From an uncultured Oscillospiraceae bacterium (GTDB lineage Bacteria; Bacillota; Clostridia; Christensenellales; Aristaeellaceae), in contig CAZEIC010000001.1 in the NCBI GenBank assembly GCA_964512175.1, positions 2,306 through 66,305 of the forward strand: 64,000 bases of DNA, written 5' to 3'. Both the position numbers and the translations under genes were made by a program. The notes under the pieces were generated by a model. The model had not been told where the DNA came from, did no database searches, and saw only the letters and a program-made list of their open reading frames with translations. Position 1 is the first letter of the stretch. Every line of letters starts with the position of its first letter. Shown here one piece after another: positions 1,400 to 58,228 of the stretch.

Positions 1400-1475
1400 T
1401 GGAGCTGATGACCAGAGTCGAACTGGTGACCTCATCCTTACCAAGGATGTGCTCTACCTACTGAGCTACATCAGC
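1400..1475 (-). tRNA. tRNA-Thr, anticodon GGU, with encoded CCA
   Basis: The reverse complement reads GCTGATGTAGCTCAGTAGGTAGAGCACATCCTTGGTAAGGATGAGGTCACCAGTTCGACTCTGGTCATCAGCTCCA. It has a 7-bp acceptor stem, a D arm, an anticodon stem CATCC/GGATG with loop TTGGTAA (GGT), a GGTTCGA-type T arm (AGTTCGACT) and a 3' CCA. Confidence 0.93.
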
Positions 1476-1519: not shown

Positions 1520-1559
1520 GCGGAAATTTTGACAAAATTTGCAATGCGCAGCGAGGAAC

Positions 1560-1708
1560 GGGGAGGGAATAAGGGATGAGGGAATAGGGACGAGGGATTA
1601 GGGATTAGGAGAACCGAGGAAGAGGGCGCGGTGTACTCGCGTCGTATCTTAATCACGCCCCCTACTCCCTATTCCCTACTCCCTTATCCCTTCTCCCTCG
1701 TCTCCCCT
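1560..1708. repeat. Imperfect inverted repeat of 7-nt-periodic G3N4 tracts (arm 1560-1611) and C3N4 tracts (arm 1658-1708) around a roughly 46-nt spacer
   Basis: Arm 1 is GGGGAGGGAATAAGGGATGAGGGAATAGGGACGAGGGATTAGGGATTAGGAG. Arm 2 is CCCCCTACTCCCTATTCCCTACTCCCTTATCCCTTCTCCCTCGTCTCCCCT. The G3 and C3 blocks stay in register, and roughly 5-6 of every 7 positions are complementary. Confidence 0.8.
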
Positions 1709-1713
1709 ATCGC

Positions 1714-15218: not shown

Positions 15219-16484
15219 TTACGGGGCGACCTTAAGCGACGTGCCAAAGCCGATGAGGCTGGTGACGCTGCGCGTCATGCCGCCGCCCGCGGTGTTCGCC
15301 GTGCCGCCCTTGTTGAGGCGCTCGCCCATGAAGACCAACGAAACCGTGCCGCCGCCGTCAAGGTTGAGCGCTTCCGTGACCCCCAGCGCGCGCATGCGGT
15401 CCGCCATCCAGTAGAAATGCGCGCCGTCCGACGTTTTCGTGCGGCCGTTGACCGTCAGAAGAATGTAGTGGTACGGCTCGATCATGCCGATGGCGCAGCG
15501 CGGCTCTTTGCGGAAGTTGTAGTCAACGTCGGCGGCATACTTGCCGTATTCGCCGTCCGTGAGCAGCACGGGCCCGAACGCCAGCGTGTGCACCGCGCCC
15601 ATCGCAAGGTATTCCTCGCCCGTGTGCGCGTCGCTGGCGAAGGCTTTCATGCTGCCGTCACTTAGCACCGCCATGACTTCGAGGTTGGGCAGTTTGTCGG
15701 TCGCGCCCGAACGGTAGGTTCTGTCGCTGAGCAGCTCGCCGTCGCGGATGACGATGCCCTGCATGATGCCGTACTGCCTGCGATGCCCGAAATAGTCGTC
15801 GGTGATGCCCAGCACGAGGTTGTTTTGCTTGGCGATGTCCACCGGCATGACGAAGGCGTAATAGCCCTTTTTGGTCTTCTCCGTCAGGCACGAGCGCAGG
15901 AAGGATTCCTCGCTCGCGTAGACCTCGCTCTCGAACCAGACGATAGGCTCGTTCGGGTCGGAAAAGCGCTTGATCTCGATGTGCAGAGAGTCGGAAATAT
16001 AGTACCAGTGCCCGTCCTCGTCGTCGGCAAACACGAACTCGCCGCCCGCCTCCGTCAAGAAGCCGCGCTCGTCCAGCGGCGGCAGCTCGGGCGCGGTGAC
16101 AGGCGCGACGACGGGCTTTCTTTGCGGCACGGTCTTGCCCGGGATAGCGGCATCGGAATAGATGAGCGCCTGCGTTTCGGGCGTGGCGTCGCCCGTCGCG
16201 GGCAGACCGTTGCTTTTCTGGAACTCTTTGACGCGCTTGGTCATGGTGGCGTTATACTTATGCGACAGGTTGTCGTAGGAACTAAAGTACCCCAGCCAGT
16301 ACAGGCGCTGTTTGAGCTTGAGCACGGAAATGCCCTCGTCGCCCTGCTCGAGCAGGGAATATGCCTGCGCGGGCGCTTCCGCCGTCTCGACAAGGCTCGC
16401 GCACGGCGCGCACAGCAGCGCCAACAGCAAGGCGACACACCCGATTCGCCGCGCCGCGCGGGAAAAGTCCGTCCATCCAATCAT
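15219..16484 (-). CDS. Secreted peptidoglycan-binding (PG_binding_1) domain fused to a phosphodiester glycosidase (NAGPA / DUF2233-like) domain
   Basis: The PG-binding repeat reads VLKLKQRLYWLGYF...KRVKEFQKSNGLPATGDATPET. The C-terminal part (FGPVLLTDGE ... ALNLDGGGT) is paralogous to the neighbouring gene. Confidence 0.75.
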   Translation of the reverse strand: MIGWTDFSRAARRIGCVALLLALLCAPCASLVETAEAPAQAYSLLEQGDEGISVLKLKQRLYWLGYFSSYDNLSHKYNATMTKRVKEFQKSNGLPATGDATPETQALIYSDAAIPGKTVPQRKPVVAPVTAPELPPLDERGFLTEAGGEFVFADDEDGHWYYISDSLHIEIKRFSDPNEPIVWFESEVYASEESFLRSCLTEKTKKGYYAFVMPVDIAKQNNLVLGITDDYFGHRRQYGIMQGIVIRDGELLSDRTYRSGATDKLPNLEVMAVLSDGSMKAFASDAHTGEEYLAMGAVHTLAFGPVLLTDGEYGKYAADVDYNFRKEPRCAIGMIEPYHYILLTVNGRTKTSDGAHFYWMADRMRALGVTEALNLDGGGTVSLVFMGERLNKGGTANTAGGGMTRSVTSLIGFGTSLKVAP

Positions 16485-16574
16485 GTGCGTTCATCCTGTT
16501 TCCGTGCGCATGGCGCACTGTTTTTCCGTCAAATTATAGCCAATGCGGAAAGCAATGTCAACCCGCGCGAACGC

Positions 16575-53107: not shown

Positions 53108-53948
53108 CGTCCTCTACCTTTTCCAGCGTGATGCGCCCCAGCTTGCCCGCGCGGAACTCGTCCAGCACCACGGCGCAAGCGCGGTCGATGTCGTATTCGC
53201 CGCCGCGCAGCAGAAAGCCGCGTCCCTTGCAGACCGCTTCCATCAGCGCCAGCCCCGAAAGCGTGGTATCCTTGACTTTGAAACGCTCGGCGACCGCATC
53301 GGGCGCGGCGGCGAGCAAGTCCGTCATGAGCGACAGCGCCAGCGCGTACACGTCGAGCACCTCGTCGCGAATCGTGCCGATGTAGGAAAGCCGCTTGGCG
53401 GCGAGCGCGTCCGACAGCCGCGGCCACAGCAAGCCCGGCGTGTCCAGCAATTCCAGATAATCGTTGACGCGCACCCACTGGTTGGCGCGCGTCACGCCCG
53501 GACGGTCGCCGACCTTGGCGACTGCGCCGCCGTGCAGCCGGTTGATCAGCGTGCTTTTGCCGACGTTGGGCACGCCCACGACCATCGCGCGCACCGTCTT
53601 TTTGATGCCGCGCGCGGCGGCGCGCTCCACGGTGTCCCGCGCCGCGCGGTCGATGAGCGAAAGTGCCTCGCCCGCCTTCGCCTGCGAGTTGACGGCGGCG
53701 CAAAAGCGGTATTCGTGCGCGCGGAAATACGCGAGCCAGCGCTGCGTCTCGCGCGCTTCCGCGAGATCCGCCTTGTTGAGCAGCAACACGCGCTGCTTGC
53801 CCTCGGTCAGCTGCGCAAGGTCGGGATTGCGGCTGGACAGCGGCAGCCGCGCGTCGCACAATTCGACGACGACGTCCACGCGCATGAGCTGGTCGATGAG
53901 CAGGCGTTTCGCTTTCGCCATGTGCCCGGGATACCAGTTGATCTGCAT
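53079..53948 (-). CDS. rbgA: Ribosome biogenesis GTPase A (YlqF/RbgA)
   Basis: The protein starts MQINWYPGHMAKA. The GTPase motifs are circularly permuted (LLNKADL ... VGVPNVGKSTLINRL ... DTPG). Confidence 0.92.
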   Translation of the reverse strand: MQINWYPGHMAKAKRLLIDQLMRVDVVVELCDARLPLSSRNPDLAQLTEGKQRVLLLNKADLAEARETQRWLAYFRAHEYRFCAAVNSQAKAGEALSLIDRAARDTVERAAARGIKKTVRAMVVGVPNVGKSTLINRLHGGAVAKVGDRPGVTRANQWVRVNDYLELLDTPGLLWPRLSDALAAKRLSYIGTIRDEVLDVYALALSLMTDLLAAAPDAVAERFKVKDTTLSGLALMEAVCKGRGFLLRGGEYDIDRACAVVLDEFRAGKLGRITLEKVEDDATEQAAKG

Positions 53949-54090
53949 GCGAGCCTCTTTTTCCAGAATTTGTCATACAAACCCAATGTCGAGTTTTCCT
54001 TATAGTAATATCATGCTTTCCACTAAAAAGCAAGGAACATTTTCATATTTTACAGTTCGTTTGCACATGCTACCGGGCGAGGTGAACTGC

Positions 54091-56304
54091 ATGCAGGCGA
54101 TCATCATGGCGGGCGGCGAGGGCGTGCGCCTGCGTCCCATGACGCTCGACAGACCCAAGCCCATCGTCCCGCTGCTGGGCGAGCCGGTCATGGGCTACGC
54201 CCTCAAGCTCCTCAAAAGCCACCGCGTGACCGATGTGACCGCGACGCTCTATTACCGCCCCAAGGACGTGCGCGCCGCCTTCGGCAAGGGCGAGCGCTAT
54301 GGCGTGCGCATGCGGTATCAGGAGGAAGCCGTGCAGATGGGCACGGCGGGCGGCGTGCTGCTGGCGGGCGCGCACGTCAAGGGCACGTTCCTCGTGCTCT
54401 CGGGCGACGGGCTGACAGACTGCGATCTGTCCGACGCGCTCAAATTCCACAAAGAAAAGGGCGCGCTGGCGACGCTCGTCGTCAAGCGCGTGCCCGTGCC
54501 GCTCGCATACGGGCTGGTGCTGACGGACGAAGGCGGGCGCATCAAGCGGTTCATCGAGAAGCCGGGCTGGCGGCAGGCGTATTCCGATTTGTGCAACACC
54601 GGGTTGTATATATTGGAGAGGCGGCTGTTGGACGCGATCCCCGAGGGCGTGCCCTACGACTTTGGCAAGCAGCTTTTCCCGGCGCTGCTCGAAAAAGGCG
54701 AGAAGCTGTACGCCTACGAAACGCCGGGGTACTGGTGCGACGTGGGCGATCAGGCGGCGTATCTGCGCGCCCAGCGCGACCTCATGGCGGGTAAAGTACG
54801 CGTCGCGCTGCCCGACTGCGTGCGCATTTCCGACGGCGCGTGGCGCGACGCTTCGGCGCGCGTGCATGAGAGCGCCGTGCTCGAGGACGGCTGCTACATC
54901 GGCGAGAACGCGATCGTCGGCGCGGGCGCGCGGCTGTCGCGCTGCTGCCTGTGGCGCGGCGCGCGGGTGCGCGAGAAAAGCGAACTGGCGGGATGCGTCG
55001 TCTGCGATCGCGCGACGGTCGGCGTTTCGGCGCGGCTGTCGCAGGATACCGCGCTCGCAGCAGGCGCGTCGGTCGGCGCGCGCGCGTTCCTCGCGCCCGG
55101 GGTGAAGGTCTACCCGTCGCTGCGCGTCGCGCCCGACGCGGTCGCGATGGAAACGGTCATCTACGGCGACTACGCGTGCCCGCGCTTTGAGGAAATCGCC
55201 TCGCCCCAGCAGGCGTGCGCGCTGGTTTCCGCGCTCTGCCGCGCGCGCCCCGCCAAACGCGTGGTATTGCAGCGCACCGAGGGCGCGGAGGCGCTCTATC
55301 ACGTCGTGGCGGGCGCGCTTTTGCGCATGGGCGCGGACGTGATCCTCGCCGATCTCGGCACGCCCGGCATGCTCGCGGCGCTCGTGCGCGCGCTGCGCGC
55401 GGGGCAGGGCGTGTTCGTGCATCAGGACGCGCTCGACGCGCGCGATCAGCGCGGACTGCCCTATCCCCGTCCGGCGCTCGCCGCCGTCGAGCAGGCGGCG
55501 CTTCGCCGCGAGGGCGACCAGCCGAGCGAGCAGCCCGGTCAGACAAGCGCGTTCACGGGCGCGGTGGAGGTATACGCGGCAAGCCTGCCCGACGCGCCCG
55601 CCGCGTGCGCCGCGCTGCCCATCGCCGTCGTCTCGCAAAGCTCGCATATTCGCGCGCTCGCACGCGAGGTGCTGACCCGAAAAGGCATGAAAAACGCGCG
55701 CGTGACCGACGATCAGGCGCTGCTTCCCGGCGAGACGGGCTTTCTGCTCCCCTCGGACGGAACGCGCGCGCTGGCGTATGCGTCCGGCGTCACGCCGCCC
55801 GAGGAAACGCAGGCGCTGCTGCTGGCGCGCGCGCTCGCGAACGCGGGCGAGCAAACGCTCTATGCCTTTGACGGCTTGCCGTCGGCGGCGGAGACGCTCG
55901 CGCCCGTGCAGCCGCCGGACGGCAGCGAAGCCTGCGCGCGACAAACGCTGATGTGGTCGGACGGTCTTTCACGCATGCTGCTGACGCTGCCGCTGCTGAT
56001 GGAGCGTCCGCTGGACGGCTTGCTCGCCGCGCTGCCCGCCGCGCACATGATATCACGCGACGTGCCCTGCCCCGCCTCCGGCAAGAGCCGCGTGCTGCGC
56101 GCGCTCGCGGATACGGGCGGCGACGTGACGCTCGGCAGCGGCGTGCGCATCCACGATATGCGCGGCACCGCTTCCATCCTGCCCGACGAAACCCGCGCGA
56201 GCGTGCGCGTCACGGCGGAATCGGCAAACGCCGAGTTCGCCTGCGAACTGTGCGATTTCTATTCGGACAGGGTCGCGAAAGCCGCGCGCGGGGAAACAGA
56301 ATGA
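54091..56304 (+). CDS. Sugar-1-phosphate nucleotidyltransferase with a left-handed beta-helix region, fused to a degenerate phosphohexomutase-like C-terminal half
   Basis: The N-terminus is MQAIIMAGGEGVRLRPMT. Hexapeptide-repeat-like sequence follows. The C-terminal roughly 400 aa are collinear with PGM/PMM domains but carry no TASHNP-type phosphoserine loop. An in-frame ATG at 54067 is an alternative start. Confidence 0.8.
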   Translation: MQAIIMAGGEGVRLRPMTLDRPKPIVPLLGEPVMGYALKLLKSHRVTDVTATLYYRPKDVRAAFGKGERYGVRMRYQEEAVQMGTAGGVLLAGAHVKGTFLVLSGDGLTDCDLSDALKFHKEKGALATLVVKRVPVPLAYGLVLTDEGGRIKRFIEKPGWRQAYSDLCNTGLYILERRLLDAIPEGVPYDFGKQLFPALLEKGEKLYAYETPGYWCDVGDQAAYLRAQRDLMAGKVRVALPDCVRISDGAWRDASARVHESAVLEDGCYIGENAIVGAGARLSRCCLWRGARVREKSELAGCVVCDRATVGVSARLSQDTALAAGASVGARAFLAPGVKVYPSLRVAPDAVAMETVIYGDYACPRFEEIASPQQACALVSALCRARPAKRVVLQRTEGAEALYHVVAGALLRMGADVILADLGTPGMLAALVRALRAGQGVFVHQDALDARDQRGLPYPRPALAAVEQAALRREGDQPSEQPGQTSAFTGAVEVYAASLPDAPAACAALPIAVVSQSSHIRALAREVLTRKGMKNARVTDDQALLPGETGFLLPSDGTRALAYASGVTPPEETQALLLARALANAGEQTLYAFDGLPSAAETLAPVQPPDGSEACARQTLMWSDGLSRMLLTLPLLMERPLDGLLAALPAAHMISRDVPCPASGKSRVLRALADTGGDVTLGSGVRIHDMRGTASILPDETRASVRVTAESANAEFACELCDFYSDRVAKAARGETE

Positions 56305-56332
56305 TCCGCCTTGACGCGTTTTGGAAAAAGCC

Positions 56333-56361
56333 TTGACATCCTCGCGCGACAAACATATAAT
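56333..56361 (+). promoter_or_regulatory. Consensus sigma-70 promoter of the candidate small RNA
   Basis: TTGACA (56333-56338), exactly 17 nt of spacer, and TATAAT (56356-56361). Confidence 0.75.
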
Positions 56362-56367
56362 AACATC

Positions 56368-56588
56368 GTCGGGATGCTTCCTGAGGTGCCCGCCAGCCCT
56401 CTGTTTTTACCCACATTTCATATAACGGAGTCCGCGTCGGTATCATGGATGTCATGCCCCCGTGCCACGCACGCCAGGGGACGGCAGAAGGGTTCGCAGG
56501 ACACCGGCCTGCTTAACATAGCGGGTGAAAAAATGGAGGACAGCGACACCTTGGGGCATTCGAAAAGAGCGCGGAGACGCGCTTTTTT
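56368..56588 (+). ncRNA. Candidate free-standing structured small RNA of about 220 nt; class not determined
   Basis: It lies between a perfect promoter and an intrinsic terminator (AGCGCG-gaga-CGCGCT plus T6, 56568-56588). A closing helix pairs 56372-56393 with 56521-56561 (GGAUGCUUCC/GGGGCAUUC, GAGGUG/CACCUU, CCCGC/GCGGG). Internal hairpins include GCAGG-acaccgg-CCUGC and CAUG-gaugu-CAUG. The next gene has its own promoter. Confidence 0.55.
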
Positions 56589-56659
56589 GTTGCAAATTCA
56601 GCATACAAATCCAGTATGAATTTTACTACATTATCAGAGAACAAACAGACAAAAGCCTA

Positions 56660-58228
<1,569 letters not shown>

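Follow-up and report, generated by a model that had tools for sequence, protein, structure and literature searches.

Genes and transcription signals at the locus

The window, i.e. the whole 64,000-nt stretch of DNA that was analyzed, carries the element under study at positions 56333-56588 of the forward strand. The element lies between a gene for a protein with nucleotidyl-transferase and beta-helix domains and a gene for an arabinofuranosidase. The features of the locus were, in order:

about 54064-56301 (+): upstream gene, with NTP_transferase and left-handed beta-helix domains
56333-56361 (+): sigmaA/sigma70-type promoter of the RNA gene assigned below to 6S, TTGACA (56333-56338), 17 nt, TATAAT (56356-56361), 12/12
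56372-56561 (+): body of the 6S RNA (ssrS), ~190 nt, delimited by the Rfam match (56375-56561), the consensus fold and covariation
56563-56588 (+): intrinsic terminator, GCGCG-GAGA-CGCGC (56569-56573 with 56578-56582) and T6 (56583-56588)
56660-56688 (+): downstream promoter, TTGACA-17-TATCAT, 11/12
56729-58228 (+): alpha-L-arabinofuranosidase, 499 aa (ORF as listed, 56687-58228)

The upstream ORF was listed at 53464-56304 (+), with a TTG start and 946 aa. In this translation, the NTP_transferase domain starts at residue 212, and alignments with homologues start near 54090; the real gene probably encodes about 740 aa, comprising a nucleotidyl-transferase and a hexapeptide-repeat region. A C-terminal part of ~400 aa had no Pfam match. 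On the other side of the element, the ATG listed for the arabinofuranosidase (56687) falls within the -10 hexamer of that gene's own promoter, and translation most likely begins at a later ATG (56729), preceded by the ribosome-binding site AAGGAG. The exact 499-aa protein had no record in the public gene index.

The two promoters, the stem-loop with its T6 tract and an ORF spanning both promoter and terminator (56311-56619) had all been described in the initial annotation, and all four were recovered. Transcription from the upstream promoter would start near G56368. Three promoter-like sites were counted in a 2-kb stretch, compared to 0.4 expected from shuffles. The terminator (stem-loop 56569-56582) was visible both in the sequence and in the fold, where additional A-U and G-U pairs lengthened the stem to 56563-56588. 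The consensus scanner did not call this terminator; our reading is that it was missed because the extension of the stem consumes the T-run. Coding regions here are ~60-75% GC, and long spurious ORFs are common in such high-GC genomes.

Assignment to the 6S RNA family

In an Rfam scan with permissive filters, RF00013 (6S/SsrS RNA) matched positions 56375-56561 (+) over the full length of the model (positions 1-187 of 187). The score was 52.6 bits, only about 6 bits above the gathering score of 46.4. The E-value was 9.7e-10 when 56250-56750 was scanned and 1.2e-07 for the 64-kb window, in which the same permissive scan returned no second 6S RNA. A default scan of the window (gathering threshold, speed filters) reported tRNA only and not the 6S RNA. 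The latter was lost in the speed filters, not through a sub-threshold score.

The RNA belongs to the RF00013 family, and all of the 6S characteristics open to computation (score, rod shape and helices with compensatory changes) were found in it. We consider it almost certain that the element at 56333-56588 is a free-standing ssrS gene encoding a 6S RNA of the canonical type. The initial annotation had given the class of the RNA as unknown, with “6S-like” among the possibilities. The first statement does not hold in view of this confident match to a known housekeeping RNA and of the scores of the syntenic homologues reported below; the possibility, on the other hand, was the correct one. The gene is an ordinary member of a family that is already known. 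This particular sequence may nevertheless be unannotated, because default filters miss the 6S RNA here.

Secondary structure

Published 6S RNAs are rod-shaped and ~200 nt long, with a central bubble between a closing stem and an apical stem (PMC8876501). The transcript 56368-56588 (+) had a minimum free energy (MFE) of -89.8 kcal/mol (z = -3.06), and none of 200 shuffles was equally stable; the z-score of the reverse strand was -1.77. The same architecture of closing stem, central bubble and apical stem was obtained from the single-sequence MFE and from RNAalifold consensus folds of 8 and 61 sequences (the alignments are described below). A hairpin in the 3' side of the bubble was present in every one of these folds. 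As modeled, the fold of 56372-56561 is the canonical 6S rod, with the following parts:

56372-56408 with 56529-56561 (+): closing stem, in segments of 6, 9, 3 and 11 bp
56372-56408 (+): 5' strand of the closing stem; helices 1-2, 21 pairs, 9 of them with compensatory changes, 97-99% of cells paired
56398-56408 (+): inner segment of the closing stem, 5' strand of the P2 or “downstream” helix
56409-56425 (+): 5' central bubble, ACCCACAUUUCAUAUAA, predicted to be open in the single-sequence and consensus folds
56426-56506 (+): internal (apical) stem, an interrupted helix of 56426-56465 with 56469-56506
56426-56506 (+): helices 3-6 of the apical stem, 21 pairs, 10 with compensatory changes
56466-56468 (+): apical loop, capping the apical stem
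56507-56528 (+): 3' central bubble, containing a 7-bp hairpin
56507-56513 with 56520-56526 (+): 3'-bubble hairpin, 7 bp, loop UAACAU
56529-56561 (+): 3' strand of the P2 helix and of the closing stem, from the helix list and covariation

The ends of the RNA are paired with each other in the fold: 56372-56393 forms 18 bp in three segments with 56543-56561, and the closing helix goes on with 11 bp between 56398-56408 and 56529-56539. A self-closing helix had been proposed initially, and its 5' range (56372-56393) stands; the 3' range given at the time (56521-56561) was too broad, the true partner being 56543-56561.

Homologues and covariation

Homologues of the upstream gene were located in 16 GTDB representative genomes, all of them metagenome-assembled genomes (MAGs) of uncultured Clostridia, Clostridiales, Eubacteriales or Oscillospiraceae and, where a source was stated, from rumen or gut samples. 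The upstream protein was 39-48% identical to these homologues. Two of the 16 loci end at contig edges, which left 14 that could be assessed. A full-length 6S RNA, scoring 50.3-67.2 bits in Rfam, was found beside the upstream-gene homologue in seven genomes, in each case on the same strand and starting 41-162 nt past the NTP-transferase gene. In the flanks of the other seven loci, no 6S RNA was found even in E-value mode. The synteny is therefore limited to a sub-clade, in which the NTP-transferase gene is the conserved upstream neighbor of 6S. The seven RNAs and that of the window were assembled into an eight-sequence alignment (A1). Mean column identity in A1 was 83%, compared to only ~45% for the neighboring protein.

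Metagenome contigs were also searched with a 20-nt block from the 3' bubble (TAACATAGCGGGTGRAAAAA), and 78 loci were retrieved. All 78 proved to be homologous elements with nhmmer, three of them cut by a contig end. The total was thus 85 homologues (7 from GTDB and 78 from metagenomes) from genomes and metagenomes of gut and rumen Clostridia. An NTP-transferase gene lies upstream of 6S in about 24 of these 85 loci. Sixty full-length, non-duplicate homologues were aligned with the window RNA to give a second alignment (A2) of 61 distinct sequences.

In A2, 97.8% of cells were paired, as opposed to 44-52% when the partners were slid by 1-3 columns. The covariation in related genomes that would be expected of the structured RNA first annotated was present: 19 of the 49 consensus pairs had compensatory changes, with 191 cells changed on both sides, whereas the slid controls yielded 4-11 pairs and none of 500 shuffles reached the values of A2. 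The eight-sequence set gave a like result. Both the closing stem and the apical stem contain compensatory changes in A2. The 3'-bubble hairpin (helix 7) was invariant in all homologues, and a part of it was fixed by the search pattern; covariation therefore speaks neither for nor against this hairpin. The 3'-bubble block is invariant in A2 because it served as the search pattern. The 5'-bubble block TTTTTACCCACATTTC was nearly invariant as well, and in this case not by construction.

Alternative readings of the locus

The RNA could be a 6S-like paralogue or derivative, comparable to 6S-2 of B. subtilis or to the actinobacterial Ms1, that binds polymerase in another way or lacks pRNA-mediated release, with the canonical 6S gene located elsewhere in the genome. 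The Rfam score of 52.6 bits is modest, the window offers a view of 64 kb of the genome, and 7 of the 14 uncut GTDB loci have the upstream gene without an adjoining 6S RNA; the 6S gene therefore moves around. Against this, the RNA has every canonical element of a 6S RNA in conserved form, its 5' bubble is much like the template region of the E. coli RNA (see below), and the window holds no second 6S RNA even with permissive filters. Ms1 is rod-shaped and 6S-like, as is the window RNA, and binds RNA polymerase. It binds the core enzyme, however, and not the sigmaA holoenzyme, and is confined to Actinobacteria (PMC9130861), whereas the window RNA comes from Clostridia and matches the 6S model itself. 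We regard such a paralogue or derivative as highly improbable.

A cis-acting leader or riboswitch that controls the arabinofuranosidase gene (56729-58228) is less probable still, to the point of being scarcely tenable. The RNA does precede that gene by ~140 nt, in the same orientation, but the strong terminator (56563-56588) and the separate promoter (56660-56688) intervene, and no riboswitch or cis-regulatory family was matched in 56250-56750 at E-values up to 10. Among the other 85 loci, none had an arabinofuranosidase homologue adjoining the RNA, which therefore is not a leader. The initial annotation had argued for an independent small RNA, and correctly so: the gene is independent of its neighbors. 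Instead, the 6S RNA was followed within ~150-210 nt by a tRNA gene in two related MAGs (L005, 6650-6738; L007, 6796-6850); the downstream neighbor of 6S is therefore variable in the clade.

A small protein-coding gene can be dismissed with similar assurance: the 102-aa ORF at 56311-56619 is open across the region, but it begins upstream of the promoter and continues through the terminator, it had no Pfam match, substitutions among the homologues are of the compensatory kind that preserves base pairing, and a conserved peptide is ruled out by stops in all three forward frames in 35 of the 61 homologues and by lengths that vary in single-nucleotide steps (187-195 nt).

Conservation of the promoter

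The ssrS gene retains its signals among the homologues. Sufficient upstream sequence was available for 59 of them, and 54 of these had a perfect TTGACA-17/18-TATAAT; the other five scored 11/12. The -10 hexamer ended 5-14 nt upstream of the 6S body in these 59 homologues, and a GC-rich hairpin followed by a T-run was located within ~50 nt downstream of most homologues. The window and all of the loci, taken together on both strands, amount to 691 kb, in which the perfect TTGACA-N17-TATAAT occurred at 77 sites; 72 of these were directly upstream of a 6S homologue. In this clade the perfect promoter is almost restricted to the 6S gene, which is the one slightly unusual trait of the locus.

The conservation of a perfect promoter suggests very strong expression of the 6S gene. 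It could further be speculated that the promoter has been selected for binding the sigmaA holoenzyme tightly enough to escape sequestration by its own 6S product, or to outcompete it; 6S RNA would then still accumulate while weaker promoters are shut down. We hold this to be unlikely on balance. Reports from E. coli that tie sensitivity to 6S RNA to a weak -35 element or to weak binding of the polymerase would fit the idea, but the data conflict and are themselves disputed (PMC5982834).

Predicted pRNA template and proposed mode of action

Known start sites of product RNAs (pRNAs) are U44 in E. coli 6S RNA and C40 in B. subtilis 6S-1 (PMC8876501). For transfer of the former, ssrS of E. coli K-12 (NC_000913.3, 3055983-3056165) was aligned to the RF00013 model. 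U44 was thereby placed at position 45 of the model, which is occupied by C56414 in the alignment of the window. The 5'-bubble sequence CCCACAUUUCAUA aligns with CCGAUAUUUCAUA of E. coli, which contains U44. Because U44 maps to C56414 and the local sequences agree, pRNA synthesis is predicted to start at C56414 and to yield 5'-GUGGGUAAAAACAG; the 5' end of this putative pRNA, from template position 56414 downwards, would be 5'-GUGGGUAAAAA. The template would be read from 56414 towards 56401. Posterior probabilities of the Rfam alignment were only moderate near the inner closing stem and the edge of the 5' bubble, and the predicted start may therefore be off by a few nucleotides.

Of the 11 pairs in the helix 56398-56408/56529-56539, a 14-mer pRNA would displace 8. 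When the RNA was refolded in ViennaRNA with the pRNA template blocked, the P2 helix was lost, and neither a clear new collapse helix nor an extended hairpin appeared. The rearrangement on release is therefore proposed for the unwinding of P2 only.

6S RNAs have been described as competing with DNA promoters for binding to the housekeeping holoenzyme and as templating short pRNAs upon outgrowth, when the pRNA:6S hybrid rearranges the RNA and frees the polymerase (PMC8414754; PMC8876501; PMC3299989). By analogy with such RNAs, we infer polymerase binding, the start and sequence of the pRNA, and a growth-phase behavior for this 6S RNA. Transcription would proceed from the perfect sigmaA promoter, beginning near 56368, to the intrinsic terminator at 56588. 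The body of the product (56372-56561) would form a rod whose large central bubble mimics an open promoter. As E. coli 6S and B. subtilis 6S-1 do, the RNA would occupy the active-site cleft of the sigmaA RNA polymerase holoenzyme and, as growth slows, sequester it. Following a nutrient upshift, the polymerase would use the 5' strand of the bubble as a template, starting opposite C56414, to produce a short pRNA. The pRNA:6S hybrid would then unwind the 11-bp helix, refold the RNA and release the polymerase.

Comparison with known 6S RNAs

Of the characterized RNAs, 6S-1 of B. subtilis (bsrA) was likened to the window RNA from its published description: it comes from a related lineage (Firmicutes) and has the same rod and open 5' central bubble (PMC8876501). 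Free 6S-1 is described as already having a small hairpin in its 3' bubble, and the same has been predicted for 6S-1-type RNAs of Firmicutes (PMC8876501); the 7-bp hairpin predicted for the free window RNA agrees with this Firmicutes 6S-1-type feature. As with C40 of 6S-1, a template C would specify an initial G in the predicted pRNA of the window, and this pRNA would invade P2, the inner helix of the closing stem (PMC8876501). The two RNAs differ in that a central-bubble-collapse helix was not predicted for the window RNA on refolding.

E. coli ssrS and the window RNA both align end to end with RF00013, although with very different scores (139.8 bits for E. coli, compared to 52.6 bits). They are alike in the template region, CCGAUAUUUCAUA in E. 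coli vs. CCCACAUUUCAUA in the window, and the housekeeping holoenzyme would be the expected target of both. The 3' bubble of the E. coli RNA is unstructured until pRNA synthesis brings about a 9-bp hairpin (PMC8876501), whereas that of the window RNA is predicted to form its 7-bp hairpin in the free state. The genes are also differently placed. In E. coli, ssrS is flanked by zapA and by fau, a cyclo-ligase gene; in lactic acid bacteria, the 6S gene is found near rarA/upsA (PMC8414754); and in the window, it follows the NTP-transferase-domain gene and has its own perfect promoter and terminator.

Value for annotation

Broad surveys of 6S RNA are said to have been made by Barrick in 2005 and Wehner in 2014. 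The understanding of 6S RNA is unchanged by the gene at 56333-56588. Its value lies in annotation: for an uncultured gut or rumen lineage of high-GC Clostridia, ssrS has been placed, and its ends, promoter, terminator and predicted pRNA are defined. The case also illustrates that a speed-filtered default Rfam scan can overlook a 6S RNA that scores over the family threshold, and ssrS may be absent from routine annotation of this high-GC lineage. The 61-sequence alignment could serve as the seed of a clade-specific model. 6S RNA is stated to occur in nearly all bacteria (PMC8414754).

Other matches and consensus promoters

A tRNA-Thr gene (GGU) is located at window positions 1400-1475 (-). Beside it, at 1547-1711 (-), the plant microRNA family MIR2118 gave a match of 34.5 bits (gathering score, 85; E = 0.006) that is almost certainly due to chance. 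It was rejected along with weak matches to Pab160 and ceN114; the three scored far under their thresholds and represent archaeal or eukaryotic families.

Apart from the 6S promoter, the window contains a single perfect TTGACA-17-TATAAT site, at 16533-16561 (-). A 421-aa ORF (15219-16484, -) starts ~50 nt downstream of it, and this promoter therefore precedes a protein-coding ORF, not a second RNA. Four perfect promoters in the remaining loci were not directly upstream of a 6S homologue (L041, 2790-2818; L044, 9152-9180; L063, 2935-2963; and L078, 738-766 on the minus strand). The last of these is ~70 nt past the 6S RNA of its locus, on the same strand, an arrangement like that of the near-perfect promoter at 56660-56688 after the 6S RNA of the window.
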